Shown piece after piece: positions 25,387 through 60,335 of a stretch of DNA of 64,000 nt. Made by a program: the position numbers and the translations under genes. How positions within the stretch are numbered: the stretch's first letter is position 1; each line of letters opens with the position of its first letter. The stretch lies in UHGV virus genome UHGV-0212524; one strand, written 5' to 3'. The stretch is from a virus. The notes under the pieces are model-generated. The model was given only the letters and a program-made list of their open reading frames with translations, searched no databases and was not told the origin of the DNA.

Positions 25387-25952
25387 TCTTCTTCTCCAAC
25401 CATACCTAATTCTTGCAGCAAGCCAAAATCAACCAACTGGAAGGTTTCAGAGAGATCGTTTGACCACACCACGTTTGCAATGTCGCGTTCTTCATCCGTT
25501 AACTGTGGTAACACATTTTCGTTGAACGTCTGATGCTCTACGTAATAAGCATCGTAGATAGACGTAGAACGCAAGCAACGGATTGGCAGACGCGGGAAAG
25601 ACACCGCTAATGCAGCAATAGATGCGCTACTCGGATTCTCCGCAGAATAACGAAGCAATTCGATCTTGTGGCGTGGGTAATCCAGTACGCGTTGTTCGAA
25701 ACCCGGATTACGTTTTTCGATTTCCACAACGGACTCATGGCCTGTCTCTGTACAGTAAACGGGAATCATCACGTTTAGCCCGTACTTAATCAACAGAGGT
25801 TTAATCTCATCTGTAAAGTCTTCACCAGGGATAATGGCGTGAACGTTATAGAGTTTGTGTTTGCGCAGAAAACGCTCAACCAGGTGGAGTTTACGCTTCG
25901 TAAAATTGTGGATCAGAATTGATTTCATTATTTGCCTCAGTAGGTTGTGCAT
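25362..25952 (-). CDS. hypothetical protein in the radical-SAM cluster (196 aa)
   Basis: Intact ORF overlapping both neighbours (start may be the internal Met at 25928). Confidence 0.5.
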   Translation of the reverse strand: MHNLLRQIMKSILIHNFTKRKLHLVERFLRKHKLYNVHAIIPGEDFTDEIKPLLIKYGLNVMIPVYCTETGHESVVEIEKRNPGFEQRVLDYPRHKIELLRYSAENPSSASIAALAVSFPRLPIRCLRSTSIYDAYYVEHQTFNENVLPQLTDEERDIANVVWSNDLSETFQLVDFGLLQELGMVGEEECLLLTKA

Positions 25953-34400: not shown

Positions 34401-36671
34401 GAATTGTCCCATCTCGCCGGTTAGAGTTACACGTTCAAATTCTAACGTAGTGTTAGTAGACAAATCGGCCTTACGTAGACGCCAAGCTGCTACGGCGTAA
34501 GCGGAGTTATTTACCGTTGAACGGAGAAGATAAACGTAGTCCTCAACCAACACGACATCGTCAGCTTCCGGCCACGGGTTCCAGGTTTGTTCCACAGTAC
34601 CACTGGGGTTGCCGTTACGGTACACGGGCATCGTAACGCGACATACCACCGTGTGCTTAGTGTGGTCCATCGAGCCATTAAACAGCACCAAATAACGGTT
34701 ATTGTCAGAACCCAGGCAAATAATCGCTTCCTGGCCACCGATCAATATCGCTATTAGGGTCACCCCAGGATATTTACTCATCCCGGCAGGGTGATATTTC
34801 ACTGAGGTCTGCTGCGGATTTACAAACGCGTTTGACGTGTCAATGTCAGCATAGCCGTAATAAATAGCTTCCGTACCCGGCACGCCGTTAGAACCGTTAC
34901 GGAGCGAATAAACCTTACCCTGCTGATACCCAACAACCCCTTTCTGGTAGGACTGGTTTTTGGTATAGCCTGCGTAGTTACCTAACGCTGGGATAGGTAA
35001 GAAGTTCTTGTTACCGAATTTCGCTCCACCTACCGTCCACGCCGGTAAGATGGTATTCAGTTTATCAGAGACCTTCTTAATCTCTTTTGCGAACAACCAG
35101 CCTTGACGCGACGTGACAGCTTTATCGTTAGTGGTGTCAATTGCATCCCAGAGCTGTAAGATACCGTCAACCGTTGCACTACCAATCGGGACGTTATCCA
35201 AGTCAGCAGTGGTGTGGGTGTGCGTTTTCAAACTCTTGTTTTTCAACACGTTCGTTAACGCTTTTGTCACAGGCTTATCACTCGGTATGGTGTTATCCAT
35301 CTTATCGATACCGAAATCGGTTTTCGTTAAGGTTAACACCATATTGTCGCCTGTTTTAACAAACCCTTTACCGTTAACGGTATAGTCATCGTCAACGTAC
35401 AAGTCCAAGCGGTCTTTTAATTCTGTTACAGCTTTCTGGGAGATAGCAGTACCTAACGCCGCAGACGTAGAGATATTCGTAATCGAGAACAACCCATAAA
35501 CTGATTCGGACGCCGTGGGAATATTCGCGTTTAACGTAACCGGGTTAGTCTGTTTTGCGGTACCGTACGGTTTTACAGTGTCTGACGCTTTGAAATACGC
35601 GTTTGCTTCAAGCAACGTTACTGACGTCAGATACATGTTCACCATTTCTGGTGTAACCAGGTACACGGAGTTATAAACTGGCGCTAATACGTCCTGTTCC
35701 GACCCCGAGTGAACCCAAAGCGTATTCAGACCCGCACTGAATTCAACCGCTAAACCCGATTCGTTGTTGTCCTGGTCTGCTTTAATCACCAACGGTTGTG
35801 GCGAGGTAATTAACCACTTATCACCACGAATACTGATGATGTGGCCACCTGACGTTTTAAACGTTAATTCATTACCGTTCGTGGTACCCCATCGACCGTA
35901 AACGGTGCCGAGGGCTTCACCCATTAACTGGTCAACGTCCGATTGCTCAATACCCGCTGAACCCATCAGCGTAGCCAACTCGTCAATCGTCAACCCAAAC
36001 GCTTTTGTAGCGTCAACAGCACGACCTAATACCGGGAGAGCAGCAATGTCATCAGTGGTATAATGATGCGCGTTAGGGTTACGGTGATGCTGGTATAACT
36101 CTTCGTCGAAAACCTTTTTACCGTTCTCGTAAATCAAGTTAGTGACTTCACTGAACGCAGCATCTAATTCCGTAGAACGTTTGATGATTTTCTTGCGAAT
36201 GTCTTCTAACGCCTTAACAACCTCATCCCTCAGAATCGCTTCTTCTAAGTTAGCAGGCGGGTCGATAGGCTGAATAACCGGCGCATACGCCATTAGTTCA
36301 GACCAGTCCACGTTACGTGGGTCTTTCAGGTCAGTACGAACTAAGAACTTCCCGATTTCAGATTGCGGTACACGGTATTGACGTGCTACCCCTAAAATCT
36401 CATATTCGATTTCTGTTGCAGTAAGCAACATAAACCCGCCGTAAATCTGATCTTGTTCAGCTTCTGCGAGTTCTTTAAAGTAATAGCCTAAATAGTAGTC
36501 CAACCCCTCAATCAGAGTACGACGTCCGTTAGGCGCGGTATCGTCGGCTACTGTGAGTTTTAATCCGATACGATAAAAAGGTCCTTCAGGCGGAATGACC
36601 ACGTTAAATCGGTTAGGGTACGTCGCTGTGCTTAGCGTACCGTTAAACTGCGCCGCGTCTTCTCTCGGCAT
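31485..36671 (-). CDS. large tail fibre or tail spike protein (1728 aa)
   Basis: N-terminal anchor motif PPEGPFYRIGLKLTV...GLDYYLGY shared with neighbouring fibres; size and position in the structural block. Confidence 0.7.
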   Translation of the reverse strand: MPREDAAQFNGTLSTATYPNRFNVVIPPEGPFYRIGLKLTVADDTAPNGRRTLIEGLDYYLGYYFKELAEAEQDQIYGGFMLLTATEIEYEILGVARQYRVPQSEIGKFLVRTDLKDPRNVDWSELMAYAPVIQPIDPPANLEEAILRDEVVKALEDIRKKIIKRSTELDAAFSEVTNLIYENGKKVFDEELYQHHRNPNAHHYTTDDIAALPVLGRAVDATKAFGLTIDELATLMGSAGIEQSDVDQLMGEALGTVYGRWGTTNGNELTFKTSGGHIISIRGDKWLITSPQPLVIKADQDNNESGLAVEFSAGLNTLWVHSGSEQDVLAPVYNSVYLVTPEMVNMYLTSVTLLEANAYFKASDTVKPYGTAKQTNPVTLNANIPTASESVYGLFSITNISTSAALGTAISQKAVTELKDRLDLYVDDDYTVNGKGFVKTGDNMVLTLTKTDFGIDKMDNTIPSDKPVTKALTNVLKNKSLKTHTHTTADLDNVPIGSATVDGILQLWDAIDTTNDKAVTSRQGWLFAKEIKKVSDKLNTILPAWTVGGAKFGNKNFLPIPALGNYAGYTKNQSYQKGVVGYQQGKVYSLRNGSNGVPGTEAIYYGYADIDTSNAFVNPQQTSVKYHPAGMSKYPGVTLIAILIGGQEAIICLGSDNNRYLVLFNGSMDHTKHTVVCRVTMPVYRNGNPSGTVEQTWNPWPEADDVVLVEDYVYLLRSTVNNSAYAVAAWRLRKADLSTNTTLEFERVTLTGEMGQFGDNLCLRIGQKTEESQTGQFFTYLTPEGRAKWTIGRNFVHGPECNHACAVRDSVIRVNHMPTVWFAAADGTTINFLQWATSFTIDTLTGKVTLEGRERFPIKADATTTLSFADGSTVGTNRKWGGGQANNRCFATYAKPNGTGMMLSCWQIADADQMPNVSIKSTQGRELFDYLRYDNPNNTSGEGTFTWDKGRGSIYTIGLSYPVGIGGSNKVWLSNPRNRYTIEVEVDPNKPYDVSGYSGYGPNNNRREVDPTLYEQLSCMAACMIPEERHGQLNGWYLTKAETFPYRNIYGNFALSSERLTLEEADRQKMIRMIVDGAPSGQANGYANERISAAHQTGNALFALWMLGINTVCEFDLLQVSCMKTSSNGRRILDIYYFMVSPSKENGYLRFNSATFKLVDWFLDLDYGLSYQSLNGGAGGKTRRVGQPIFASADGTNFGIWLPYTLTTRNIGDLNALGYAAKYTFDPGSGWTRVAGKSQLRQMAPEHRPESGCYMGAGDWDKMALIYSKADRVFCSGNAYTAAEFVNDTTFSTGGQAVIIAGVETAEGWILYLTEEVKLDFGSSSYTLPTWSVDLSSEFPSNHANQTFYVHAEVSGSTAQYRIGLEQLADTSTRLFVGTVTTDSSRITGISIDKVKRLGRVKELEDHAAIIDQHDVAAAFDRKTGPLLTLVNKPVKAPTASASKGEGYVDGQKWGSLSGITTRPKLPIQETYSGYKSVARVAYENCADQFWQKAVAANIATATASENMQAASANMKWIGAYTKPTTGTNAYLALSLRVQVPGNPGTANRALKLRLAAPTGIVEARYALNQAGGTMTEQTVTLTANQYLEKEHSGFKPAEEVRVHVTFVIPKNEYESYRTKFGAVQLIDVESNTIVKQADIDTPFFVFTDTELAAQSGLVYKAVKGQFDNLPSEPTLIVRDGQTGTNPPVKSSYANGTLTVYVATAYDAVNPAETRDIDKLQFNLMFTS

Positions 36672-36765: not shown

Positions 36766-39700
36766 CTAAGTACGATCCCCTAACTGCTTCCCGTTAAGTT
36801 CACGTTTCAGTACAGAAAGTATCCATTTCCACGCTTTACTCGTGATATGGTACGGATTGCGTTTCTCCATTAAGAACTGCTTTTCACCGCTACGCAGTTC
36901 GAAGCTCTGCGCATTAAGCTGATCCTGACGAGTGCTTTGCTCATCAGTCACGTCTAACGAACAGGTAAAGTTAAGCTCGTAACCTTCGGGATTATCACCC
37001 GGCGGGTCTAAGACAATATAGATGTCCTGACCTACACGTAAGTCGGTGGCCGTGATACTAATCGCTTTACCTACGTCAGCACTGGTTGACAGAGCAAACT
37101 CTGCGCTATCAGTAGACGCTAAGAATGGGTCTTTCCCTGCGTCGCCGATAATCACCTTACCTGGCCAGTTACTTTTTATCGTTCCTGACACTTTTGCAAT
37201 TCGGTACTGTTGTTTATCGGCACCTTGTGCAAAACGGAGAATGAGTTTGTGACGATAACGACTTGCAGCAGCCTTAGTCGTACTCCACTCGTTGTTCCAG
37301 GAAGTATGCAGTTCGTTTTTCTTCGCCATCAGCGCACCGCGAGACAGCTTACGATCAAAGAACTGCGCAGGTAACTGCCCATCGTGAGAAACCGCAACGT
37401 TTCCCTGACCAGTTGGCAAGGCAATGCTCTCCGTGGCACGGTATTTTTGACTAATCTCATAAGTCGCAGGGTCAATCACAGACTGACTATAATCAGCGTC
37501 TTTGTTATCAGCCAAATACCCAACGGATGAATCCAAATACGACTCAAACAACGAACGTAAGTAATGATACTTATCAATGTCGATGTTGTTCGTAACCGGA
37601 TCAATCAGTGCGTGGCTAATTGTTACTCGGCATTTCGCGCTCAGTTCTTTAAACGACAACCCTATTCCGTCACCGGTGAAATAATCCACCAAGTCAAACG
37701 GGAATTGAATCTCCAATTGACGTTGTTTAACTGTCGTCGTCCCAAACTGCGAGAACGACAACGCTAAACGTAACACACGCGTACTTACGTTATAACGGTA
37801 ACGAATCATCCCACGAGGTGCATGGTTTGCAGAGATTTTATCTCGGGTGGCACCCCAGCCAATCAAATCGAGAATCGCGGGGTTGGTTTCTTCACCGTTG
37901 AACAACACGTCCTTAAACGTTGCATTCACCGCTGTTTCCCCAGACTCTTCCATTACCAACGGAATGTCAGTAACGTCTGAAACTGAACGGGAACCAATCC
38001 CCAACTTACACGCTTTGTCCGTCAGGTCAATACGTACATAACGACGTTTAACACTCGCCCCTTGCGTTGACGTACATAGCACCAAATCTGGTGCGGCAGT
38101 AAGTGCTTGTGTTCCACCGACGTCGTCAACATCGAATGCAAACGAACCTTCGAACGTCGGTGCGTTGTTTTCTTTCGGGTTAAACGGTGTAAACCAGCAA
38201 TACGGTGTAGCACCTTCAGGCATCACAACGTACTGAAGACTGGACTTCACGTTTTGGTTGTGTGCGTAAGTATAAAGACCGCGACTGACAAGATGGAAAA
38301 CATCACCTGTTCCGGCTGTTAACGCTTTCCTAAAGATACACGCTCTTGGTTCGGCAATAGCACGGTTTAATAACGGCAAACGTGGGTTATCCGTTAACGC
38401 CCAGTCCACAGAACTGAGTCCGTGTGCTTTACGCGTGTCGATGTGTTCACTAACCTCGGCACTTTTCCCGAAATCAAACGTGGTTTCGAACCCTACCGTT
38501 TTATTCGCGTAATTCTCACCAGCAACAATATCAACGTAACCGATATAACCACGTTCAGGATCAACTGCGATGCTCTGAATCGGTTCAGCACGCGAATACA
38601 GAGAGCCTGTGAGCATGTTAACGTACAGATAGTGACGAATCCCTACGTGCGTGGTAACAAACTCCTGGAGAAGCTCTACGCGCGTTTCAGGGCCACTGAA
38701 GTAAACAGGGTAATCCCCATCGTAAACTTCAAACTGTACCGCTGCGGACTTAGCCGTGTCACTACATTCAGCTTTAACCGCAATCGTGTAGTTTTCAACG
38801 TCTGCTGACGTTTCATACACTGCAACGAGTGGAGATTCGCCTGAAGCTGCTAGGTTACCGTTGATATAAACGGTTACCGGTCCGCCCCCTGCGGCATAAA
38901 CCCAGAGCTTCGATTGGTACGCCCTTACACGCGTTTTTGCCAGAACCGTAACGACTGACTGGTCACCCATCTGTGTAGCAGTTTTACCTACCGGGACAGA
39001 CTGGAACCCCATCAACGGCGGTTCTTCAATACCCGTCCAGTTGATTCCCGTACCGTTACTCACCTTACCCGTAGGCCAGGTCAGTTCAAGCTGGTTATTC
39101 GGTGAGAACCAGTTAAACATCGGGGTGGTTTGCAGGTCAATCGCACCAGTAACGGTGCTGTCGCCTTTCGTCCCGTCCAGCAAATAGAAATATTTCAAAT
39201 CCTGAACGGAGATTGACGTACCCTGGCTATTAAAGCGCCAGTCTGCACCTTTCACAGCAGCAAAATCAGTTACCGTGCCTTCTTTCGCGTTTGCAATTGC
39301 AGCAGCCACCACATCTAAACGGGCTGAAAGCTCTTTTAAGATGTTCGGTACCACCGCACGGTTTTCAACTAAGCCGTTCTGGTTAGTTGCGTAACGACCG
39401 ATGCCGTAAATCGACTGCGAGGCTTTATAAATGCCTAACTCTGACCAGTCGTGATGGTGTCCGACGTCTGCTAAACCACTAACCGAAGCATTCAGTGCGG
39501 TTGACAACGGTTTGTCGAGGTCTGCGGTGTTATCCGCTTGCCCTAATCCCAGGTCAGCTTTTGTGATTGTCCTGGAACCGTCGTTCATCGGTTTACCGTT
39601 AATCATGGTCGTTTTAGTCACGTACCCTGATAAGTCGGTTGAATACGGCGTTAATGACGCAGGGGTTGCAGCAACCCCAACCGTTTCTGTGCCTTTACCG

Positions 39701-40950
39701 GTTTTAAGTTTAACAACACCTTTTTCAGCGGTGGTCGCTTTCGTCGGGTCGATAGTCCCCACGATAGGATCGGCACGAGAACCTTTACCGGTAAAACTAA
39801 TCCCGTTACGGCCTTCGATATACACTTTGGAGTCATCAGGATCGCTACCGCCACTCCCGCCAGCATCAGGGTCTTGCTGATACTCCATCAGCGCTGTGGT
39901 GGTCAACAACGGGTTACCGTTCAGAGTGAGTTTGTTCATCCCTAAAGCGTCACCGGTTGACTCGATACGTAAGGTGTTTTTACCCGCACGCCAGTTAATG
40001 TAACGTCCCGCACCTGTGCCTTCCAGATGCCCTACCGCCAATACCACAGAACCGTTGGATTTTAACGTAAAGCCATCATTCGCAAAAATGATTTCGGACT
40101 CACCATTTTTCGAACGGAACTGTGCGCGGTTTCCAGACACCGTACAGTTAAACACGCCCCGTACTTCCGAAGAAATCCAGTGGGAGATATACGTGTCAAT
40201 AACTGACTGTGGTAAACGAAACGCTTTCAGTTCTTCCGTTAACGCTTTTAATTTTAACCCGTACGCCATAAAGGTGTCAGGTGTTTTCAGGTTAACGGGA
40301 TGGGCATTAATTTGTGCGCTCGTGGTTTCGTGCGGGTTCGTCGCGGCGATATGTGCTGGGTAGTTAAACGCTTCGATTTCTTTCCCCAACGCAGCCACTA
40401 GCGCTTTAACTTCGGCTAATTTATCTTTAATTAGCTGGTTAGCATCATCGGTTTTCAGCTCGATATCGTGAATCGCTGACGCTAAATATTTTTTGTTCAG
40501 CAAGTCCGCCCAGGACGTTGCCGCTGGCGTAGCCGGGTATAACGACGGTCTACCGTCTAACAACAGCCAGTCTGCACTGACCGGGTTATTCAAATATTTC
40601 ACCAGCTCGTCGAGCATGTCAACGAACGGGTCGTAGAACGTACCGCCGAGCATTTGCCCTTCAAAGGTTACAATGCCTTTGATGGATGGGTTGATAAGGT
40701 GTACCCCACAATACACGTTGGCTGCTACCGAGTCATCCAGTTCCGTCAGCTGATATTGCAGTTCGTAATCCACCCCACGGCTCAGTGGGGTGGTTGAACC
40801 TGGTTGTCTGACGACTAAGTCTTCAAAGAACGGGCGATGGTCTAAAATCACCACCCGGTCGTTGTTGTTTTCTGACCCGATGATACGCTCCTCTAAGAAG
40901 TGATTCTCGGTTTTCGTCCCCCGAGGATCGTAAGGATACGCTTTCATCAA
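36766..40950 (-). CDS. large tail fibre or tail spike protein (1394 aa)
   Basis: N-terminal HRPFFEDLVV...GVDYELQY anchor motif. Confidence 0.7.
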   Translation of the reverse strand: MMKAYPYDPRGTKTENHFLEERIIGSENNNDRVVILDHRPFFEDLVVRQPGSTTPLSRGVDYELQYQLTELDDSVAANVYCGVHLINPSIKGIVTFEGQMLGGTFYDPFVDMLDELVKYLNNPVSADWLLLDGRPSLYPATPAATSWADLLNKKYLASAIHDIELKTDDANQLIKDKLAEVKALVAALGKEIEAFNYPAHIAATNPHETTSAQINAHPVNLKTPDTFMAYGLKLKALTEELKAFRLPQSVIDTYISHWISSEVRGVFNCTVSGNRAQFRSKNGESEIIFANDGFTLKSNGSVVLAVGHLEGTGAGRYINWRAGKNTLRIESTGDALGMNKLTLNGNPLLTTTALMEYQQDPDAGGSGGSDPDDSKVYIEGRNGISFTGKGSRADPIVGTIDPTKATTAEKGVVKLKTGKGTETVGVAATPASLTPYSTDLSGYVTKTTMINGKPMNDGSRTITKADLGLGQADNTADLDKPLSTALNASVSGLADVGHHHDWSELGIYKASQSIYGIGRYATNQNGLVENRAVVPNILKELSARLDVVAAAIANAKEGTVTDFAAVKGADWRFNSQGTSISVQDLKYFYLLDGTKGDSTVTGAIDLQTTPMFNWFSPNNQLELTWPTGKVSNGTGINWTGIEEPPLMGFQSVPVGKTATQMGDQSVVTVLAKTRVRAYQSKLWVYAAGGGPVTVYINGNLAASGESPLVAVYETSADVENYTIAVKAECSDTAKSAAVQFEVYDGDYPVYFSGPETRVELLQEFVTTHVGIRHYLYVNMLTGSLYSRAEPIQSIAVDPERGYIGYVDIVAGENYANKTVGFETTFDFGKSAEVSEHIDTRKAHGLSSVDWALTDNPRLPLLNRAIAEPRACIFRKALTAGTGDVFHLVSRGLYTYAHNQNVKSSLQYVVMPEGATPYCWFTPFNPKENNAPTFEGSFAFDVDDVGGTQALTAAPDLVLCTSTQGASVKRRYVRIDLTDKACKLGIGSRSVSDVTDIPLVMEESGETAVNATFKDVLFNGEETNPAILDLIGWGATRDKISANHAPRGMIRYRYNVSTRVLRLALSFSQFGTTTVKQRQLEIQFPFDLVDYFTGDGIGLSFKELSAKCRVTISHALIDPVTNNIDIDKYHYLRSLFESYLDSSVGYLADNKDADYSQSVIDPATYEISQKYRATESIALPTGQGNVAVSHDGQLPAQFFDRKLSRGALMAKKNELHTSWNNEWSTTKAAASRYRHKLILRFAQGADKQQYRIAKVSGTIKSNWPGKVIIGDAGKDPFLASTDSAEFALSTSADVGKAISITATDLRVGQDIYIVLDPPGDNPEGYELNFTCSLDVTDEQSTRQDQLNAQSFELRSGEKQFLMEKRNPYHITSKAWKWILSVLKRELNGKQLGDRT

Positions 40951-40960
40951 AAAATTCTCC

Positions 40961-43900
40961 TTAATCGCGAATGATTACCGCCTGCACTTTATTGTTGGTG
41001 TCGATAAACGACATTACGCGCTCCTTGTTAAGATAAGGAGGTATCGGTAACGCAGCGTAATCCGCCAGGCTGTTATTAAACTCGGTTGCCACTAGCGCAT
41101 TAAGCGTTTCAGGGTCTGAGCTTGTCCCGGCCAATTCCATGACGCGTACACGATTTAACGAGGAGTAGTTGCTGATATAATCCAACAGCGTACCGTAGAG
41201 TTTGTTCCCGGTTATGCTGTCTGTCGTAGAACGGATATTAGCACGCACTTCGTCCTCATAAAGTCCCCCTAAACCGTAGTAAATAGGGGTGTACGGATCG
41301 TTAACGATAGGCGCGAGGTTGAACCCAGTTAAACGGTCGGTCAGCGAGATTTTCTGCGTAGTACCACCTGCCGCCGTACAGCTTACGTATTTATCTGCCG
41401 CAGACAAATACACCACAATAGTGTAAACAGTACCTGCTAAGGTCAGCGTTGCGTTAAACGTTAATTCGTTATTCGCACCACGCGTGTGGGTAAATGATAC
41501 GTCAGGATGTAACGTACTCCACGGTGCTGGGGTAACGCGTTTGGTCGGCGTGAAACCTAACACCACGGATTTCCCGTTACCGAAGTTTAAACCAAACCCG
41601 GCGTAACAATACTCACCGTTACTGTCGGTTAAACGATAACCACGGGTGATAAGTAACGACAACCGCATAAACTCGTCTTCGGTATTTTTCCAGCAAGCCA
41701 GGATGGTTTCTAGCACCGTTCCGGTTTTTGCGTTGCTTTCGGTTTCCCAACTGACTCGCATCCCCGCATTGTTAAATACCGGGAACAGGTTGTGGATAAA
41801 CCCGTGAACGTTATCACTTACCCCTTTTGCATCAAACACCCACTTCGACGCAAGCTGGTCGTATTTCACACCATCGAGTGCTTTATATCCACCGCCAACC
41901 ACATAACGCCAGTCTGCTTCGCCACGCACAACCGCTTGAAGTCCAGAAGCCCAGCAGGGCGCACCTACTGTTAAATTGCTTAACCCCAGCACTGCACGTG
42001 AAGCAGAACGCTGAATGTGTGCGTTATCATTGGCGACGTGGTCTTTCAGCTCACGGAAATCGCCTAACCGTGTCACGTTACGTAGTTCAGTAACGAACAC
42101 TTCAGAAAGGTCGTTAATACCGATTAGACCCACGCGCGTCATGGTATCCGTTTCAGCCTGACTGTAGCTGTCGTGAATAATGTACTTCGCTTTGTTATCG
42201 ACAATGTCAACAAAAATCCCTGCGTAAATTTCCTTATTCAGATTCGGGAAACGTTCAGTGACGTTAACCGACATCAACGGCACGTCGTACGTTTCGCCGC
42301 CAACGAAATACGTGGAAGCAGGAAGTGTCACTAGGATTTTGTCTTTAACCGTAACGTCAATTAGGTCGTTACCGGACTTACCAAAGCGAATAATGTCAAC
42401 GCGCGCACCCGAGTCAACCCCGCCGACGGTATTCTCCAAATCTTCAATCTGGGAAGTCTGCGCCATCACCACACTACCGTCGAGCGCTAAAGTGGCATCA
42501 TCCACTTCCAGACCGAATTTAATCAGGCCCCGTTTCGTGGTGTCTGCGTTCGCAACACCGAATACGGAAGACGGGTGTTGGTGAACCTTCGGTGAGTATT
42601 TGTCCAGCTCGGTCTGCTGTGCAACAGAAATCGGTAAGTCAACGTCCGGGGTATTCGCAACGTTACCTAAACCAAAGGTAATTTTGTCGATAGTAACCGA
42701 ACTGGTAAGCTGCATGTCGTTGATGTACGACTTGGCGGCAACTAACTTACCGGTAAACTCTGCGTCCAGTTTTTCAATTAACGCAGGGGTTGCTGCGAGG
42801 TTTTCAGCCGTACCGAATTCGTCCGTTAACTGCCAACACGCTAACGTAGTAACGTCTTCGGCAACCGGAAGAATAAACGTTGCGACAAACGGCGACGCTT
42901 TAATCCCGCTACCCGTAAGTTCCACTGTAGCTGTAGTTGCACCGTAGAATAATCCCGTACCGCCTGCGGTATTGCCCGGCAAATACGGCGCTACCGTAGT
43001 GGGGTCTAAGAGTTTCTTACCGCGCCACAGTAATCCACGGTCATCAGGATATAGCACAAGCTGGTTATCTCCCGCTTGCAACGTTACCGGGTTGTTACCC
43101 ACGTTAACGTCAGTAGAACCTTGACCGATGAACTTAATGGATTTCGGATCAACGACAAACTGAGCACCTAAACGTCTCTCGTCAACAACGCCAGGTGCTT
43201 TCTTAATGGTAACCGTGTTACCTTTGTTTTGCGAACTAATATTGACGCCGTCAGCAACATTATTGATCAGCGATTTAAAGTGGTGCTGATTCTCTAATGC
43301 TTCTAACGCAGCGTCCATGTTATTGAAGTTAATCCGACCGCTATACGTTTTACTGTTTACGGTAATAACGACGTCAAACACATTCCCTGTACGCTTCAGT
43401 TGAAAACGTAGCGTAAAATCCCCATCCGGTATTGCCGGATTAGGAGCTTGCGAAATATACCGAACTGCCGGTACAGGACTACCGTAACCGTGCAACGCCA
43501 GTTCGATAGTAAGAGTACCGGACCAGACTTCACCGGTAATCTCTACGTACTTACCGGAGTTACTACCGGGATTTTCGTAGAAACGAAAACCAACCCTACC
43601 GACCGCTTCATTACCAGACGCTGTTTTACGTCCGGTAACAATAAAGTCAATATCTTGCAGGTTGGCAGGTACCGCATTAAAGTTAGCACTGAAACCGCTT
43701 TTCGTTCCTGTATAACGAAGCGCACCGTGATATCTGTGGCCACTACTAACATAGCTTTCACTAAAATAAGGACTCACGTACTTCGACATCGACACTGGGT
43801 CGACTTCAGTAGTAAATGACGTAAAGCCGGGGAGCGTTGTAATCGTGCCGTTAACGTTCTTGCTCGCTGATTCACGAAGCAGTTTTTTCTGGGCGGTTAA

Positions 43901-45283
43901 CGTTGCCTGCGTTGGGTACTTAGCGTTTACGTAATCGGTTAATTGCTCCTTAGTTTTCCCGTAGGCTAATGCTGCGTCGGATGCAATGCCGTTTAATTCT
44001 AACGCACGAATCGGACCCCAGGTGTCAGCGTGTGGGTTATCCTTACGGGTGACGTGTTCGTGCGCAGGCGCGTTGCGATAGAGCTGTTCTACTAACTGAT
44101 GGTACTTAACGATTAACTGATAAACGTCGTTACTTACGTCTGCTTCTGGCGCACCAGGTAACGCAAGGAATTGAGCATAATCGTTCTCAGCCGCCCACCA
44201 GTTTAAGTTAACGTTGGTTTTGTACTTCAGCCACTTCGCAACATCCGTTTTGGTGTAACCTGCTGAGAATTCGTCTGGCGGTGTGTCAACGTTAAAGGTG
44301 TAGTCCATGGACTGTTTGTTAGTCGTCACCTCGATAACGTATACACCGTTACCCGGTTGACGAACAACGCTAAACGTTAATTCGCCTTTTAATTCATCGT
44401 CGGTCAAACCGTTGATTAACGTATAATCATAATCGGTCGAACCACTGCCTAACGCAACTGTCAGTCGTAGGCTGATTTTACGTTGTTTTAATTGGAGACG
44501 AAGGATACTTGCGCCACCGTTCGCGTAGCACAACATCCAATCGATTTGTTCGTTCGGATTAATACTCCCCATATTCGGAAAAATAGCCGGAATACGGTAT
44601 TTCATCGACAGGGAATATTCATTTAACGTGGTGGTTTTGTACGTAACGGAGAAACGGCGTTTAGCGGTATTGTAAGTATACCCACCTTTGTTGTCGTACG
44701 TTGCGTACTGTTCAGACGTGATAACCGTACCATTAGCACGATGCTCGATATCTAACGTGTTACGTGCAATCGGGTCTACCCGATTCACCACGTTACCTAA
44801 CGAATCACCTAAGCCTGCAATGGCCTGCATTAATTCCAGTTCACCTTTCCAGTTTTCCCAGTCGAACTGAATATCGACCGGTGGAAAGTAAACTTCGCCG
44901 ATAACGGTATCCCATTGACACGCAGACGGGTATTTATCTTTATTGAGTTCGCGTTCTGCGGTAATCTGTTCTTGGGTCGCTTCACCACAACCTACGGCGT
45001 GGTAATCTACCGTGAAATTCGATTTGTATTTGTCATTAACAATCCAAATCATCCCGTGCACGAGATAGGCTGTGCGCAACATACCGGTCTCGTACGGGTG
45101 TGTAATAACGTAATCGTCGCCTAAGGTCAGTATTTTGCCGCCGCTCTTGACCACCAGGGATGTGGTGAAAAAAGGGGCGTGGGCAGGTACCAACATTCGG
45201 TACTTCGTACCAATGACGGCGACCGCTTCACCGGTTATTTTATTCCCCGGTTCTTTGAAGTGTGGGTCTAGGACGACAGCCAT
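40961..45283 (-). CDS. large tail fibre or tail spike protein (1440 aa)
   Basis: N-terminal HAPFFTTSLVV...GDDYVITHPY anchor motif. Confidence 0.7.
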   Translation of the reverse strand: MAVVLDPHFKEPGNKITGEAVAVIGTKYRMLVPAHAPFFTTSLVVKSGGKILTLGDDYVITHPYETGMLRTAYLVHGMIWIVNDKYKSNFTVDYHAVGCGEATQEQITAERELNKDKYPSACQWDTVIGEVYFPPVDIQFDWENWKGELELMQAIAGLGDSLGNVVNRVDPIARNTLDIEHRANGTVITSEQYATYDNKGGYTYNTAKRRFSVTYKTTTLNEYSLSMKYRIPAIFPNMGSINPNEQIDWMLCYANGGASILRLQLKQRKISLRLTVALGSGSTDYDYTLINGLTDDELKGELTFSVVRQPGNGVYVIEVTTNKQSMDYTFNVDTPPDEFSAGYTKTDVAKWLKYKTNVNLNWWAAENDYAQFLALPGAPEADVSNDVYQLIVKYHQLVEQLYRNAPAHEHVTRKDNPHADTWGPIRALELNGIASDAALAYGKTKEQLTDYVNAKYPTQATLTAQKKLLRESASKNVNGTITTLPGFTSFTTEVDPVSMSKYVSPYFSESYVSSGHRYHGALRYTGTKSGFSANFNAVPANLQDIDFIVTGRKTASGNEAVGRVGFRFYENPGSNSGKYVEITGEVWSGTLTIELALHGYGSPVPAVRYISQAPNPAIPDGDFTLRFQLKRTGNVFDVVITVNSKTYSGRINFNNMDAALEALENQHHFKSLINNVADGVNISSQNKGNTVTIKKAPGVVDERRLGAQFVVDPKSIKFIGQGSTDVNVGNNPVTLQAGDNQLVLYPDDRGLLWRGKKLLDPTTVAPYLPGNTAGGTGLFYGATTATVELTGSGIKASPFVATFILPVAEDVTTLACWQLTDEFGTAENLAATPALIEKLDAEFTGKLVAAKSYINDMQLTSSVTIDKITFGLGNVANTPDVDLPISVAQQTELDKYSPKVHQHPSSVFGVANADTTKRGLIKFGLEVDDATLALDGSVVMAQTSQIEDLENTVGGVDSGARVDIIRFGKSGNDLIDVTVKDKILVTLPASTYFVGGETYDVPLMSVNVTERFPNLNKEIYAGIFVDIVDNKAKYIIHDSYSQAETDTMTRVGLIGINDLSEVFVTELRNVTRLGDFRELKDHVANDNAHIQRSASRAVLGLSNLTVGAPCWASGLQAVVRGEADWRYVVGGGYKALDGVKYDQLASKWVFDAKGVSDNVHGFIHNLFPVFNNAGMRVSWETESNAKTGTVLETILACWKNTEDEFMRLSLLITRGYRLTDSNGEYCYAGFGLNFGNGKSVVLGFTPTKRVTPAPWSTLHPDVSFTHTRGANNELTFNATLTLAGTVYTIVVYLSAADKYVSCTAAGGTTQKISLTDRLTGFNLAPIVNDPYTPIYYGLGGLYEDEVRANIRSTTDSITGNKLYGTLLDYISNYSSLNRVRVMELAGTSSDPETLNALVATEFNNSLADYAALPIPPYLNKERVMSFIDTNNKVQAVIIRD

Positions 45284-45350
45284 TATCTACTCCTATAGTC
45301 CGTGGGCGTCGAGTTCATACTATGACTTGAATCTATTGAGGAAAAGAGCT

Positions 45351-46613
45351 GTGACTACTGCTTATCAAGTGCGGCCTGACAGCGCTTTTGGCTTCTCTCG
45401 AGAGACCCGTACCTGGGGAGCCATCGACGTCACGCAACCCTTAGAAACCTTGTGTTCTGATTACCATATTTTCGAAGTCGGTCTGAGTGCGCTTGGTAAA
45501 GACTATACGTTAATTAGCCAATATCACCTCGCTGACTTACAAAACCGTACCGATACGTTACAAGACTGGCTGAATGAAAAAGCCGGTGTGGTTATCTCTG
45601 CGTTGAAAGACGGTTTACCGACGTTAGAGTTTGATTGGGCACACTACCAATCGATTAATGCCGATGTTCCAGTAGAAACCTACCTGTGTCCTCCCGGTTA
45701 CCATTACAGTCAAGATTTCAGTATAGACGATGCTGACGACGTTGTGATTGTTTGCGAAGATAAATGGAAAGACAAATACCGTAACGGGGTGTTGTACAAC
45801 ATCAACGGTCAATGGGTACCACATCAGTCGGATACAGTTGGTGTACGTTTACCGGGCGCGGGTAAGATAGTACGTCGTGCAGGGACACCGGATATCGGCT
45901 GCATGGTCTTTAGTAAATTGGGGAATGTTAAAACGTACCCCATTGCTAACTTGACCCTAAACAAACTCGACACCACCCGTGACTATTATTCCACGTTAAT
46001 GATTTCTTTACCGGAATCTATTACGGGTAAAACCGTGGGGTTTGTTATCGGGGGTCTGATACACTGGTTACCGGTTACTGGGTACTTCTCCGACAAAGCC
46101 ATTATGGTCTCGTTACCGAACTTTGACGTTGCGCGTACTGTGTTAGAAACCCGACGTTATTACGACTGGGATAGCATCGGTGTTGGCGATCTGTCATCCC
46201 CGACCAGCGTACAGCGTATCCGCAACCCAGAAACATTAAAGGCGCTTTTAACCCACGAGTCGTCGTTTATCTTTACGGTGGATAATCCGTATCTGGAAGA
46301 AGAAGTTGTGGGGGTTTCTCACAACGCTATCTGGGGACGTTTATACCTTAAAGATCCTAATGACCCTGATGGGGAAAAACAGCTGGGCTATCTGTTAAAC
46401 CGCTTCGGTAAAACCGTTGCTTATTGGCCGACGTGGGAAGAAGGGGAATGGGTATTTAACACCACGGAATTCGACAGTCAAAACTACGTGTTCCGTGAGG
46501 CCCGTTGGTATAACCAGAAGAAAATTAACGATGCACAGGCAATCGTAGGACCTTTCGGTCCCTGGGAAAAAGTCTATTTGGAAATGCATCGTTTCCGTGC
46601 AAGAAAAAAATAA
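45351..46613 (+). CDS. hypothetical protein (about 420 aa; start uncertain)
   Basis: Track ORF begins at 45135 but that would overlap the divergent fibre gene start; the in-frame GTG at 45351 has the RBS gaggaaaag upstream. Confidence 0.45.
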   Translation: MTTAYQVRPDSAFGFSRETRTWGAIDVTQPLETLCSDYHIFEVGLSALGKDYTLISQYHLADLQNRTDTLQDWLNEKAGVVISALKDGLPTLEFDWAHYQSINADVPVETYLCPPGYHYSQDFSIDDADDVVIVCEDKWKDKYRNGVLYNINGQWVPHQSDTVGVRLPGAGKIVRRAGTPDIGCMVFSKLGNVKTYPIANLTLNKLDTTRDYYSTLMISLPESITGKTVGFVIGGLIHWLPVTGYFSDKAIMVSLPNFDVARTVLETRRYYDWDSIGVGDLSSPTSVQRIRNPETLKALLTHESSFIFTVDNPYLEEEVVGVSHNAIWGRLYLKDPNDPDGEKQLGYLLNRFGKTVAYWPTWEEGEWVFNTTEFDSQNYVFREARWYNQKKINDAQAIVGPFGPWEKVYLEMHRFRARKK

Positions 46614-51013: not shown

Positions 51014-51592
51014 GTGTACCGATTAATAGAAATGAGAAAAGACGTTTGGTTGGAAAACCTCGTCGATGGGGAGCTTGAGGGAATAGAGCTTTCCTTACCA
51101 GAGAGAGCGGACACGGTATTGGCCTTTCTGGTAAAACAGGCAGACCGTGAGCCGGTAGGAATTTTCACTGTGGACTATAAAGATCCGCGAGGAATTCATT
51201 TACGGAACATTTGCAGTGGTTTGGAAAACTTACCGGCTAATCCGTTCTTAAACTACGCAAAACGTAAACTCCAACCGGGACAACACCTCTGGGTAACGTT
51301 ATCGCCTGACGTTAGGATCATACGTGACGATTACTCGGCGTTTGTACAGGCAACGAAAGTCAGTCTGTATAACCCGAACGCAGAGCGTACCGATATGCCG
51401 TTTATAATTACCTTAGAAGACGATGGAACGCAAGAAGGTATCGAGGCAATTACGGAATTAGTAAACTCTTATCCGGTTGCCACTATCGAGATAGAAAACC
51501 CAAGCCGTTTACAATTGGGTGACCTGCTCGAATGGATCGAACTGAATACAGAATTCTTAATCAATTCTCGTCAGTATCGATTCGACGTTTAA
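51014..51592 (+). CDS. hypothetical protein (192 aa)
   Basis: Intact ORF with RBS aagaggtggtaccGTG/ATG. Confidence 0.55.
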   Translation: MYRLIEMRKDVWLENLVDGELEGIELSLPERADTVLAFLVKQADREPVGIFTVDYKDPRGIHLRNICSGLENLPANPFLNYAKRKLQPGQHLWVTLSPDVRIIRDDYSAFVQATKVSLYNPNAERTDMPFIITLEDDGTQEGIEAITELVNSYPVATIEIENPSRLQLGDLLEWIELNTEFLINSRQYRFDV

Positions 51593-51596
51593 CAAC

Positions 51597-51626
51597 GGTG
51601 GGGTGTAAACCCCACCTTTTTTTTGT
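51597..51626 (+). terminator. rho-independent terminator
   Basis: ggtggggtg taaa ccccacc followed by a T9 run. Confidence 0.75.
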
Positions 51627-51647
51627 TCTCTAACATTAAAAATAATC

Positions 51648-51688
51648 TCAGATATATATTACTTAGGTGAGAGTACAAAAGCTCTCAC
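51648..51688 (+). promoter_or_regulatory. conserved promoter-like motif plus hairpin (copy 4 of 4)
   Basis: tcagatatatattacttaggtgagagtacaaaagctctcac; the downstream leader cttaactaaaaccattttaggag is shared with copy 2. Confidence 0.5.
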
Positions 51689-51718
51689 TTAACTAAAACC
51701 ATTTTAGGAGTATTAACG

Positions 51719-52090
51719 ATGAAAAGCGAATTGTTCAAAGACCCGTTTGTTGTATTACTGATCGTTACTCGCGCTGCCACTAACCCAGAAGACCTGAAAC
51801 GTTTACTTGCCAACGAAGCATACCTTATCGAACAGCGTGACGCGCAGTTAGCCAAACCACACGCTGAAGGCCAGGTGAAAGACCTTATCTCTATTTTCCG
51901 TAACGAAGAATGGCGTAAAAACAACCAGCTGTCCGACAACCTGACGGTTGCAATTGCAAAACTCTTGACACTGTTCAATCTTGACAAAGACATTAACCAA
52001 AGCCTTTCTACAGAAGAACGTCTGGAGATGATAAGAGGTATCGGAGATAGCTATACGCAGATTAAAGCATTCCCCAACACAGTTATTTAA
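51719..52090 (+). CDS. hypothetical protein (123 aa)
   Basis: Intact ORF downstream of promoter-like copy 4. Confidence 0.55.
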   Translation: MKSELFKDPFVVLLIVTRAATNPEDLKRLLANEAYLIEQRDAQLAKPHAEGQVKDLISIFRNEEWRKNNQLSDNLTVAIAKLLTLFNLDKDINQSLSTEERLEMIRGIGDSYTQIKAFPNTVI

Positions 52091-55625: not shown

Positions 55626-58148
55626 GTGAATATGGAGGTGGACATGTTAAAAGTTGAACGTATTGTACTTAAAGGATTTACCGGAATGGGGTTACACGAA
55701 ATCGAAACCTTCGATTTTACTATCCATTCCCCAACCACCATTATCCTCGGTGGTAACGGCTGCGGTAAGACCAGCTTACTGTCCGTGTTTCTACCTATCG
55801 CACCTTCGAAATCCGAATTCCGTGACGGGGGTTCTTACACCAATATCTGTTTGGTTAACGACCATCGTTACAAATTTAAGGTTGCACGTAAAGGCAACTC
55901 ATTGGTTTGCGATATCGAGAACCTGACGACGGGTACCAAAATCGTCGAGCAAGGTAATGCGAAAGTGTATAACTCTCGCGTAGAAGAAATCACGGGCATT
56001 ACAAAAGAGATTAAAGAGTTACTGAACGGGGAAGTGCTTTTAACGGATGCAGGAACGGAACTGCGCCGTAAGTGGTTCTACCGTTTAAGTACGTCAGACT
56101 TAACTTACGCGTTAGGTTTTTATCAACGTTTACGAAAAAACCTGACGATGCTAAACGGTGGTATTGAAATCACCAGCCGCAAGATTGCAGAGTTGCGTAC
56201 CCGCGTAATTGATAACGAAGAGGAACGTCAGCAATTAGCAACGCGGTTAAAAGCGTTAGAAGCGGATTTACGTGAACTCAACAAACAGATTGAACAACTG
56301 CCTGGTCTGAATCGTGACGTTACGGTGGCAACGATTCAATCGCTATTGCTTAAAATCGAAGCACCGATTAATGCTATCTTGGAACACCGTGGCGGATTAC
56401 CTACGGAAGAACAAGTAGAGGAAGCACGACGGATTGAAGCCACTGCCCGTGAAGCGGTGGTCTCTGCTGAAACAGAACTATCCATGCTAAACAAAGATTT
56501 GTCTTTGTTGATGGACGAGTCCACTCGCCAAGATTACCTGATGCGGAATCACGAGGGGTTAAAAAACACGGTTGCGAAACTACGCGAGTTAATAAAGCAG
56601 TGGGACACTGAGCACCTTTTCCCTGAACTGTTTGCAGAGACCGTTAACATCGACCAGCTTAAAGCAGCAACCGATGCGCGTGTCTGGGGACAACGTTTAG
56701 GAACAACACTGGATGCTATTAAGTCAACGGAGCGGTTGAACGTACTGGAAGAGAAACTGTTGACCTTAGACCAAAACTCATCTGGGTTGCGTGACAGGTT
56801 ACAGCGTGTTGAAAATGTATTGCAGAATCTCAACCACGAACGGAATCACTATTTGGAAACCGCCGAGGTTGATTGTCCGCAGTGTCAATTTAAATTCCGT
56901 CCGGGTGTCCGTCGTTCTTTGCCTGAATTGGAAGAAGCCATTCGTGGACAAATGGAGCAACGTAATACGTTACAGACTCAACTTGATTCCGTATTGCGAG
57001 ACCGTACGGAATTAGAGTCGGACGTTAATTACATGCGTCAAGTACGGGAAATCGTTTTAACATACTCGAAAGACCCGGTATTGAGTTTGTTCTTTAAACG
57101 TCTCCAGGAGCGGAATGTCTTTACGGATAACCGCAGTCAGTTTGGCAGTCTGTGCGCAGAGTTCGATCGTGAACTTTATTCCGCAATTGAGTACCACGAA
57201 ACGAAACAGCGTTTTGCTAAAGCGGAAAAAGAGTGGGAAAATGCGGTTGCAGCGGTAGGTAACGTTGACGGTGCACTACAGCAGAAAATTGCCTTCCAGC
57301 AGGAACGTTTGGGTAAGGCAACAGAAACGCTCTCAGAGCGCCGTAGAGAGCACGCAGTTGCTAATGATACCTTTTGTTATCTAAACGAACTTAAAGTCAC
57401 TGTAGACAATTTTAATGCGGTTTTTGAGCGTTTAGAGAACGACGTTAAGGTAACATTAACCAACACGGTGGTCGAAACGTTATTAAACGCCCGAGAAAAC
57501 AAGTTGGATGCGTTCACCACAGCACGGGAAAGGTACCGTCAGATGGAAAACGAACTCAACCAACTTACTGCGTTAGAAAAGGAGTTATCGGATTTACAAG
57601 CGCAGCAATTTAATAACAAGCTGATGATTCAAGCGTTCTCGCCCGAGAAAGGGGTATTACGCAAATACTTCTACAACGCTATCGTGAGAATCACAGAATT
57701 AATGACGCGATATATCGAACAAGTCTGGACCTACCCTATGCGGGTCATGCCGTGTGACTTAACCGACGGTGACTTAGACTACACGTTCCCAGTGCAGTTG
57801 AAAACTCATCCTGAACCGGTACCTGACGTGCGGAAAGGGTCGAAAGCGCAGCGGGCCATCTTTAATTTGATGTTTCGTTTAACCGCTTACAAAGCCCTGA
57901 AACTTCATCAGTATCCGCTACTGTTGGATGAACCGTCAGAAGGGATGGATGAGGAACACCGAAATAATCTTGTCGGGTTTATTAAAACCCTGGCGAATTC
58001 CGGTGAGTTCTCTCAGTTACTGGTGGTATCTCACGAAGCAGAAATTCATTCAAAACTTAACGAAGCCGCATACTGTGTTATTGAACCTGAAGGCGTAACA
58101 CTGCCTGCGGTTTACAACGAAGGAGTAAAAATTGTCTACGCAAACTGA
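55626..58148 (+). CDS. SbcC/Rad50-like SMC-family ATPase (840 aa; start may be the Met at 55644)
   Basis: N-terminal Walker A ILGGNGCGKTS; long coiled-coil middle with CPQC (zinc-hook-like); C-terminal Walker B LLLDEPSEGMD and H-loop VVSHEA. Confidence 0.7.
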   Translation: MNMEVDMLKVERIVLKGFTGMGLHEIETFDFTIHSPTTIILGGNGCGKTSLLSVFLPIAPSKSEFRDGGSYTNICLVNDHRYKFKVARKGNSLVCDIENLTTGTKIVEQGNAKVYNSRVEEITGITKEIKELLNGEVLLTDAGTELRRKWFYRLSTSDLTYALGFYQRLRKNLTMLNGGIEITSRKIAELRTRVIDNEEERQQLATRLKALEADLRELNKQIEQLPGLNRDVTVATIQSLLLKIEAPINAILEHRGGLPTEEQVEEARRIEATAREAVVSAETELSMLNKDLSLLMDESTRQDYLMRNHEGLKNTVAKLRELIKQWDTEHLFPELFAETVNIDQLKAATDARVWGQRLGTTLDAIKSTERLNVLEEKLLTLDQNSSGLRDRLQRVENVLQNLNHERNHYLETAEVDCPQCQFKFRPGVRRSLPELEEAIRGQMEQRNTLQTQLDSVLRDRTELESDVNYMRQVREIVLTYSKDPVLSLFFKRLQERNVFTDNRSQFGSLCAEFDRELYSAIEYHETKQRFAKAEKEWENAVAAVGNVDGALQQKIAFQQERLGKATETLSERRREHAVANDTFCYLNELKVTVDNFNAVFERLENDVKVTLTNTVVETLLNARENKLDAFTTARERYRQMENELNQLTALEKELSDLQAQQFNNKLMIQAFSPEKGVLRKYFYNAIVRITELMTRYIEQVWTYPMRVMPCDLTDGDLDYTFPVQLKTHPEPVPDVRKGSKAQRAIFNLMFRLTAYKALKLHQYPLLLDEPSEGMDEEHRNNLVGFIKTLANSGEFSQLLVVSHEAEIHSKLNEAAYCVIEPEGVTLPAVYNEGVKIVYAN

Positions 58149-58650: not shown

Positions 58651-59094
58651 ATGGAAATTTATTTGTTGAACGCACTTTCTAAAATCGGTGAAGAACAAGC
58701 GAAAGATTTACTCGCACTCCATTACCGTTACTTAGATCACCAAGCAACGATGCTGAAAATCAAAACCGCTGTACCGAAATTAAACGTGCGTCAACTGATC
58801 GAAGGCAACTGTGTTGTTCTGATTTATATCGACGATGTTGCGGTAGGTTATTGCAGTTACCGTAATCGCAACGGGGTACTCAAAATTCGTTCGTTATACG
58901 TGCTGCCTGATTACCGTCAGCGCGGGGTAATGAAAGAAATCTTCAAAGCGATAGCCGCTGATGAAGCATTCGGTGAAATTGCCATTGGGATGTACACGAA
59001 GTGCAAAGAAGCGAAAGAGTATTTCATTCGTCGTGGCTACAAAGCAACCTATTCTCACGATAAAGAATGGGTGGATTTCAGCAAAACTTTCTAA
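58651..59094 (+). CDS. GNAT family N-acetyltransferase (147 aa)
   Basis: LYVLPDYRQRGVMKEIF fits the GNAT acetyl-CoA-binding motif A (V..yR..G.g..L), preceded by a beta-strand-like VVLIYIDDVAVGYCSY. Confidence 0.6.
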   Translation: MEIYLLNALSKIGEEQAKDLLALHYRYLDHQATMLKIKTAVPKLNVRQLIEGNCVVLIYIDDVAVGYCSYRNRNGVLKIRSLYVLPDYRQRGVMKEIFKAIAADEAFGEIAIGMYTKCKEAKEYFIRRGYKATYSHDKEWVDFSKTF

Positions 59095-59810: not shown

Positions 59811-60335
59811 ATGCTTACCTCACTCGGTAAGACCGTTATGCTAACGATACTTCCAGAATCGGTTATTGACAACGACCTGTTTAACGCCCCTGAGCGCTTC
59901 AAGGTCGTTACGATAAATTGCGTAGGGGCAATGGGTCGGGGTATCGCTTTAGCGTGCAGAGAACGCTATCCTGAGCTTTATCAGGACTACCGAGAACGTT
60001 GCTTCGCTAACGAAATACGAATAGGGAATGTGTACGTTTATCCCGAGGAAAACTGCATTCTCTTACCAACAAAAACACATTGGAAACTGAAATCCCAGGT
60101 TTCTTATGTTATCGCGGGTATCACCGCGTTGGCAGATGCCGCAGAAAACTTAGAGGGTGGGGTGGCTTTACCGCCGTTAGGGATGGCTAACGGTTGGTTG
60201 ACAAAAGCTGAACGTCAACAAATCTTTTTGTTTATCGAAAAGAAACTCGTACCAAGGAGACAACAATACTGTTTCTATTTACCCGATACGCTTTACCAAG
60301 AAGCAAAACCTTTAATTCCAAACCTTTTTAAATAG
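59811..60335 (+). CDS. macrodomain protein, TARG1/DarG-type (174 aa; alternative start at 59838)
   Basis: DLFNAPERFKVVTINCVGAMGRGIALACRERYPELYQDY matches the recalled GDLF...VNCVGVMGKGIA..FK..YPE signature of TARG1/DarG-type (Macro_2) macrodomains. Confidence 0.6.
   Translation: MLTSLGKTVMLTILPESVIDNDLFNAPERFKVVTINCVGAMGRGIALACRERYPELYQDYRERCFANEIRIGNVYVYPEENCILLPTKTHWKLKSQVSYVIAGITALADAAENLEGGVALPPLGMANGWLTKAERQQIFLFIEKKLVPRRQQYCFYLPDTLYQEAKPLIPNLFK

Follow-up and report, generated by a model that had tools for sequence, protein, structure and literature searches.

The closest described relatives of the gene considered here belong to the AdfM family ("anti-DarT factor macro"), in which Morgan et al. 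(Cell Rep 2026, PMC13309987) placed PhiKZ gp104, PhiPA3 gp108, Goslar gp83, and Asesino gp217. In their experiments, PhiKZ AdfM strips the ADP-ribose placed by DarT2 from a TNTC single-stranded DNA oligonucleotide, and the N23A substitution lowers this activity (PMC13309987). The same protein fully rescues the toxicity of DarT2 in E. coli, and deletion of the PhiKZ adfM gene leads to a multi-log loss of titre only on DarTG2+ clinical strains (PMC13309987). AdfM of PhiKZ, PhiPA3, and Asesino localizes to the phage nucleus; for the Asesino-type subclade the report covers localization only, the catalysis being shown for PhiKZ gp104 (PMC13309987). The active-site residues, N22/K80 in DarG and N23/K78 in PhiKZ AdfM, are numbered here as in a figure legend of that report (PMC13309987).

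Other phage factors act against DarT toxins as well. The name AdfM was given independently to T4 Tk.4 on the basis of transposon sequencing on a DarTG2 host (HIDEN-SEQ preprint, 10.1101/2025.11.20.689424). AdfN, which comprises T4 30.3 and other phage NADAR proteins, reverses the guanine ADP-ribosylation caused by DarT1 (PMC11825919). AdfA of RB69 and AdfB (ICP1 Gp145) are small proteins without enzymatic activity which are believed to bind DarT (PMC11481870).

The concept of an orphan DarG2-like eraser which guards the DNA of the phage against DarT2, even within the phage nucleus, was thus already published in 2025-2026. The adfM-like gene described below is a further member of the published AdfM family, in an undescribed phage. 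It lies near the end of a 64-kb stretch of viral DNA (UHGV-0212524), and this whole stretch is called the window throughout.

Gene Position and Start Codon

ORF calling on the + strand of the window yields a reading frame at 59811..60335, which encodes 174 aa plus the stop codon. On the opposite strand no competing ORF of at least 40 aa overlaps it. The peptide quoted in the initial annotation, DLFNAPERFKVVTINCVGAMGRGIALACRERYPELY, corresponds to residues 22-56 of this 174-aa ORF. A second in-frame ATG is located at 59838 and gives a 165-aa product, so that two segments can be distinguished:

59838..60335, + strand: adfM-like coding sequence, a stand-alone DarG2-type macrodomain (homolog lengths, exact gene calls, Asesino gp217, AlphaFold)
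59811..59837, + strand: upstream in-frame extension MLTSLGKTV, nine codons, without counterpart in the homologs and probably untranslated

A collection of 5.8 billion proteins contains 46 close homologs; almost all have lengths of 161-166 aa, and the alignment with them begins at the second Met. The exact 165-aa product appears among the gene calls of two assemblies of independent origin (ENA ERZ27295778 and the Logan contigs of SRR29133893), and a contig of 50-200 kb with exactly this protein is recorded. For the 174-aa product of the window's sequence no record was found, and a start of this type has been called only in one relative, the 98%-identical protein P0001. On the strength of the homolog lengths, the start of the alignment, and the gene calls in two assemblies, the 174-aa reading was rejected for the 165-aa one. 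These lengths and calls, together with the length of Asesino gp217, are the reason why we take the gene as 59838..60335, and 59838 is most likely its true start. The coordinates 59811-60335 proposed initially hold for the ORF; the start of the gene is more likely at 59838. A scan for sigma-70 promoters and terminators around the gene gave nothing above the expectation from shuffled sequence.

Fold and Family Affiliation

The ORF had been read initially as a stand-alone macrodomain of the TARG1/DarG type. A stand-alone macrodomain is what we observed, and its similarity to known members goes far beyond chance, as the phmmer and PADLOC E values below demonstrate. When all PDB sequences were searched with phmmer, the M. 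tuberculosis DarG macrodomain (5m3i) came at the top with E 2.6e-21, followed by the T. aquaticus DarG macrodomain (5m31/5m3e, E 2.3e-18) and then by the T. africanus DarTG fusion. A family profile built from 27 homologs gave 3e-33 for M. tuberculosis DarG, 5e-31 for T. aquaticus DarG, and 8e-4 for human TARG1 in the same database. The match to the DarG model of PADLOC is also strong (E 5.7e-32), and antitoxin_DarG (NF048014) is the sole NCBIfam match (E 1.4e-31). The earlier assignment can therefore be narrowed: its DarG part, more exactly DarG2-type, stands (E ~1e-33), and TARG1 moves to the second tier (E ~1e-3).

The AlphaFold2 model, built on the alignment of homologs, has a pLDDT of 94.4 and a pTM of 0.90. 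The fold predicted is the expected macrodomain, nearest to DarG and after it to TARG1. Foldseek against PDB placed T. aquaticus DarG first (E 2e-13, TM 0.83, with a range of 0.81-0.83 for DarG structures), then M. tuberculosis DarG and the T. africanus DarTG, with TTHA0132 and TARG1 behind them. Human TARG1/OARD1 (PDB 4J5Q-4J5S) represents the second-closest structural family, with a Foldseek E value of ~1e-7 and TM 0.75-0.81 on the target. It belongs to the lysine-based glycohydrolase subclass; of its catalytic Lys-Asp dyad (Asp125 in TARG1), the comparison covered the Lys, which is conserved in the adfM-like protein. It differs in its far weaker sequence match (the profile E value of 8e-4), and it is a eukaryotic protein, best known for the removal of ADP-ribose from Glu/Asp of proteins.

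Against the Pfam Macro family (PF01661) the protein scores 20.1 bits and remains below the gathering cut-off of 22, so Pfam alone would leave the macrodomain call ambiguous. This is a shortfall in sensitivity and no argument against the macrodomain assignment, because precomputed matches to PF01661 exist for its close relatives P0003-P0010 and the fold is unambiguous.

The exhaustive search of 1.84 billion representatives returned 4,518 relatives at E <= 1e-3. Here, the nearest non-phage relatives are DarG-type macrodomains in several architectures, among them full-length DarG (P0092 and P0053, both scoring above the equivalog threshold) and P0069, a bacterial DarT-macro fusion. These cellular relatives fit the view that the catalytic half of DarG is present here as an orphan copy, the adfM-like gene.

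Active Site and Binding Loops

Four elements of the macrodomain active site were located on the DNA:

59916..59918, + strand: Asn codon AAT, N27 of the 165-aa or N36 of the 174-aa product, equivalent of T. aquaticus DarG N22 and PhiKZ AdfM N23
59925..59942, + strand: GAMGRG, glycine-rich loop 1 for ADP-ribose binding, which aligns with GVMGKG of the DarG structures
60072..60074, + strand: Lys codon AAA of the PTK motif, K79 of the 165-aa or K88 of the 174-aa product, placed by alignment
60171..60197, + strand: PPLGMANGW, loop 2 for binding of the diphosphate and distal ribose, which aligns with PPLG(V/A)GNGG of DarG

Both catalytic residues of such macrodomains, Asn and Lys, are conserved in the adfM-like protein. 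K79 is the equivalent of DarG K80, of PhiKZ AdfM K78, and of the TARG1-type catalytic lysine, and the PTK motif aligns with gp104 and with both DarG structures. Neither N27 nor K79 varies among the 27 homologs of alignment A1, in which identity goes down to 35%, and N27 is also invariant in alignment A3, which includes DarG and T4 Tk.4. The binding loops are preserved to a similar degree, with G30, A31, M32, G33, and G35 of loop 1 and P112, P113, L114, G115, G119, and W120 of loop 2 invariant in alignment A1.

The last of these residues distinguishes the Asesino-type subclade, which has Trp in loop 2 (GMANGW) where DarG and PhiKZ AdfM have Gly (G-NGG). The bacterial DarT-macro fusion P0069 also has GNGW with the same Trp. 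We considered this residue as a mark of some specificity other than that of DarG but do not retain it as one. Because P0069, which is fused to DarT, carries the same GNGW, the loop-2 Trp says nothing about the substrate either way.

Missing DarG Half and Lack of a DarT Partner in the Window

How much of the DarG antitoxin does the protein retain? Its NF048014 score is 110 bits against an equivalog cut-off of 250 bits, and the match covers positions 7-154 of the 338 in the model. In alignment A3 the adfM-like protein stops where the C-terminal DarT-binding domain of DarG starts. Lacking this domain and a darT partner, it was rejected as a full DarG antitoxin.

The initial annotation had stated that no DarT-like gene is adjacent, and the same is true of the window as a whole. 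The tblastn search with P. aeruginosa DarT2 against the six-frame translation of the 64 kb gave nothing better than E 1.6, and Pfam scans of the window ORFs detected no DarT (PF14487), other ADP-ribosyltransferase (ART), NADAR, or second Macro domain. The neighbours of the gene are a GNAT acetyltransferase, small ORFs of unknown function, and an SLT endolysin, and they do not form a darT operon.

With DarG (DarG2; PDB 5M31, 5M3E, 5M3I) the protein thus shares the macrodomain fold, the sequence family, and the equivalents of N22/K80. The same chemistry is predicted, i.e. hydrolysis of thymidine-linked ADP-ribose on single-stranded DNA. In contrast to DarG, it has neither the C-terminal DarT-binding domain of ~180 aa nor a neighbouring darT, and it is encoded by a phage, where it serves the attacker and not the host.

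Comparison with Phage Counter-Defence Proteins

The adfM-like protein is 62% identical to Asesino gp217 (166 aa) over its full length, with 164 residues aligned (E 7e-78), and its gene is the positional ortholog of gp217, with the same neighbours. Among isolated phages, the closest AdfM is ~65% identical. Identity to PhiKZ gp104 is 35% (E 4e-28). In common with the published AdfM proteins, it is a stand-alone DarG2-type macrodomain of ~160 aa with the same Asn/Lys site and the same phage lineage backbone; the difference is that the window gene comes from a different, undescribed phage. PhiKZ gp104 differs from the Asesino-type subclade in that it has neither the GMA(N/H)GW version of loop 2 nor the YLP...IPN C-terminal tail.

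The T4 protein of the same name is much more distant. Its gene has the following position:

4923..5390 of the phage T4 record (L007), - strand: tk.4

Tk.4 is likewise a stand-alone phage macrodomain needed for resistance to DarTG2, and the concept of an orphan eraser enzyme is common to both. Pairwise comparison with the adfM-like protein gave 26% identity over only 43 residues (E 6e-4), on which ground close homology was rejected. In alignment A3, Tk.4 has Gln in place of the catalytic lysine of the PTK motif of DarG and AdfM. These differences suggest that Tk.4 was probably recruited independently from a different macrodomain lineage, and that T4 Tk.4 and the AdfM proteins of chimalliviruses may use different catalytic solutions. 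In addition, T4 forms no nucleus.

AdfN is also an orphan antitoxin-like eraser used by phages as a counter-defence against DarT, but it has the NADAR fold. AdfA and AdfB are alike in being phage counter-defences against DarT toxins. AdfB differs in mimicking the C-terminal domain of DarG, which is precisely the half absent from the adfM-like protein.

Phage Lineage, Gene Order, and Host

By megablast, the 4.5 kb around the adfM-like gene had no match in 50,697 phage records. We therefore regard the phage as undescribed, and only comparison at the protein level is informative. On this level, 30 ORFs of the window are collinear with Erwinia phage Asesino at ~112-180 kb, with 23-80% amino acid identity. 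At this level the phage can be classed with the jumbo phages of the Asesino/phiEaH2/SPN3US type. Asesino and Stratton have the same succession of genes around the macrodomain, namely SbcC/SMC, GNAT, macro, SLT endolysin. Two of these genes precede the macrodomain gene in the window:

55626..58148: SbcC/SMC-like protein, upstream of the macrodomain gene
58651..59094, + strand: GNAT acetyltransferase, four genes upstream of the macrodomain gene

The neighbourhood of macro and GNAT genes recurs in the window, Asesino, and Stratton. In the distantly related Serratia phage Moabite (H23), an acyl-CoA N-acyltransferase gene adjoins the macrodomain gene.

Asesino builds a chimallin-based phage nucleus, as was shown experimentally (PMC11724907). 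The Asesino chmA ortholog (gp039) lies far outside the span which is syntenic with the window, and it is from the collinearity with Asesino that we infer nucleus formation by the window's phage.

Another part of the window bears on the host:

5469..9935, + strand: tail fibre of 1488 aa with the C-terminus of a T-even-type distal long tail fibre
9935..10717, + strand: Gp38 adhesin, directly after the tail fibre

The Gp38 adhesin is 75-80% identical to those of the E. coli phages RB49, JSE, and PaulHMueller, and neither gene has a counterpart within the syntenic Asesino span. The pair looks like a T-even host-range cassette which has moved into a jumbo backbone of chimallivirus type. The resemblance of the fibre and the adhesin to their E. 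coli phage counterparts speaks for an Escherichia-like host. For E. coli, active DarTG2 systems have been documented (PMC11825919; 10.1101/2025.11.20.689424).

Proposed Function and Alternative Explanations

If the phage carries in its adfM-like gene an orphan copy of DarG2's catalytic half, then we can ask: What would this gene do during infection? In a DarTG2+ host, DarT2 would ADP-ribosylate thymidines of single-stranded phage DNA in the TNTC motif, and these marks would keep the genome from being replicated and, in chimalliviruses, from being packaged. The macrodomain of 165 aa would bind ADP-ribose and hydrolyze the thymidine-ADP-ribose bond by means of Asn27 and Lys79, leaving unmodified DNA. 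Because the protein has no DarT-binding domain, it is expected to act as a pure eraser enzyme and not as a stoichiometric inhibitor of the toxin. The phage is a member of the Asesino/SPN3US-like lineage of jumbo phages, which form a nucleus, so the protein probably enters this compartment, in which the DNA is housed.

We consider it highly probable that the protein is an AdfM ortholog which erases thymidine-ADP-ribose from single-stranded phage DNA and so neutralizes DarTG2, probably in the phage nucleus. The starting point is what was observed directly, i.e. the fold, the DarG-type affiliation, the conservation of catalytic residues, the orphan status, and the orthology and synteny with Asesino gp217; the biochemical and cell-biological behaviour is carried over, by analogy, from the homologs. 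The initial idea of a lone macrodomain serving as an antidote mimic against an ADP-ribosylating defence has thus gained support from the DarG match, the fold, the active site, and the AdfM homologs (PMC13309987). Several points run counter to this reading. The PhiKZ protein whose biochemistry was tested is only 35% identical, and for the Asesino-type subclade the published experiments comprise localization only. The subclade carries Trp in loop 2 in place of the Gly of DarG and PhiKZ AdfM, although the DarT-fused P0069 shares it, and the Pfam Macro score stays slightly under its cut-off. Finally, the rest of the genome, probably ~180 kb, might encode a phage ADP-ribosyltransferase whose marks the enzyme reverses.

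The last point leads to the alternative that the protein reverses ADP-ribosylation of something other than DNA, either protein Asp/Glu, as TARG1 does, or RNA. The marks would come from another host defence, e.g. a CmdT-type mRNA ADP-ribosyltransferase, or from the phage's own ADP-ribosyltransferase. TARG1 is the next-best match both in structure and in profile searches, and a published survey found that more than 40% of jumbo phages encode ARTs (PMC9503650). Two actinophage homologs (H26 and H40) lie under genes annotated as ADP-ribosyltransferases, which suggests ART-macro fusions, and the window is only about a quarter of the genome. However, DarG surpasses TARG1 by ~30 orders of magnitude in the strength of the match, and the search of the 64-kb window for an ART was negative. 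PhiKZ gp104, moreover, acts on DNA modified by DarT2, and it is specifically on DarTG2+ hosts that the phage suffers from the loss of gp104 (PMC13309987). A substrate other than DNA therefore appears improbable to us. An equally modest chance is given to the view that the Asesino/SPN3US-type subclade, with its invariant Trp and conserved tail, has a different or broader substrate range than PhiKZ AdfM. Its members might then erase, besides the thymidine-ADP-ribose made by DarT2, e.g. modifications placed by a transferase of the phage or by another defence that ADP-ribosylates DNA or RNA.

Much less room is left for a housekeeping ADP-ribose-1''-phosphate phosphatase or O-acetyl-ADP-ribose deacetylase working on small ADP-ribose metabolites. 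Existing annotation points in this direction, as relatives are labelled "Appr-1-p processing protein" and PHROG 335 is labelled "phosphatase", but these labels are historical transfers from the generic name of the macrodomain. The weak matches to yeast Poa1p (E 0.02-0.05) are ~19 orders of magnitude weaker than those to DarG. The acetyltransferase gene four positions upstream, which is found in the window and in relatives, counts in favour of such a role; against it, the window showed neither tRNA-splicing nor Tpt1-type genes, and the characterized homolog acts on DNA (PMC13309987). We regard such a metabolic role as quite unlikely.

A sponge or hydrolase of an ADP-ribose-derived immune signal (e.g. 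Thoeris-type cyclic ADPR isomers) in place of a DNA repair enzyme is very hard to credit: macrodomains generally bind ADP-ribose derivatives, and the survey speculates that viral ones may target variant cADPR signals (PMC9503650), but the protein has no specific similarity to known anti-Thoeris proteins, the Lys/Asn pair typical of DarG/TARG1 glycohydrolases is strictly conserved, and the homolog enters the phage nucleus, where DNA is present and not the signals (PMC13309987).

The window adds to the AdfM family a member of moderate divergence, from an uncultivated jumbo phage which probably infects Escherichia; this protein is a candidate for comparing the catalysis of the Asesino/SPN3US subclade with that of PhiKZ AdfM. 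It also illustrates that a reading made from sequence alone can recover a real counter-defence gene. The practical value is in annotation, as the relatives still appear under the names "phosphatase", "Appr-1-p processing protein", or simply "hypothetical protein", and the window protein escapes the Macro family of Pfam at its curated threshold.

Other Genes of the Window and of Related Phages

Several other ORFs of the window deserve a record:

893..1267, + strand: 124 aa, Pfam PF22751 "DUF488-N3a, active DUF488-N3 subclade" (44 bits against a cut-off of 27)
25891..27225, - strand, and 27215..28132, - strand: adjoining radical-SAM proteins (Radical_SAM plus Fer4_12)
31485..36671, 36766..40950, and 40961..45283, all - strand: three consecutive giant ORFs of 1728, 1394, and 1440 aa
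1394..1957, 23507..24043, 24113..24643, and three more: six ORFs matching DUF7941 (best E 5e-51)
45135..46613, + strand: 492 aa, TTG start

For the DUF488-N3 domain, the literature search returned no paper which mentions it. The radical-SAM pair is conserved with Asesino gp180 and gp181 (73% and 49% identity, respectively). The three giant ORFs are conserved with Asesino gp188-190, and they are taken as paralogous virion proteins because they cross-match each other's PHROG families (7449, 8078, 7557, 2163). The DUF7941 ORFs appear to represent the expanded paralogous family of "virion structural proteins" to which Asesino gp155-170 belong.

The 492-aa ORF is the most conserved protein of the window, with 80% identity to Asesino, and it overlaps the 5' end of the giant gene on the opposite strand by ~150 nt. 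In Asesino, phiEaH2, and Stratton its counterpart consists of two joined pieces across two annotated ORFs; in SPN3US-type phages it is one piece. This split may reflect a frameshift, mis-annotation, or a fused gene.

A split is also found in the adfM region of the Salmonella phages SPFM1/6/8/12/20 (P0040-P0046), where two hypothetical proteins of 123 and 152 aa are annotated, each covering only 12-16% of the adfM-like query. In SPFM19 (H2), tblastn detected a single uninterrupted match at 51448..51939 with 94% coverage. The split annotation is likely a problem of annotation or of sequencing frame and not a real loss of the gene.
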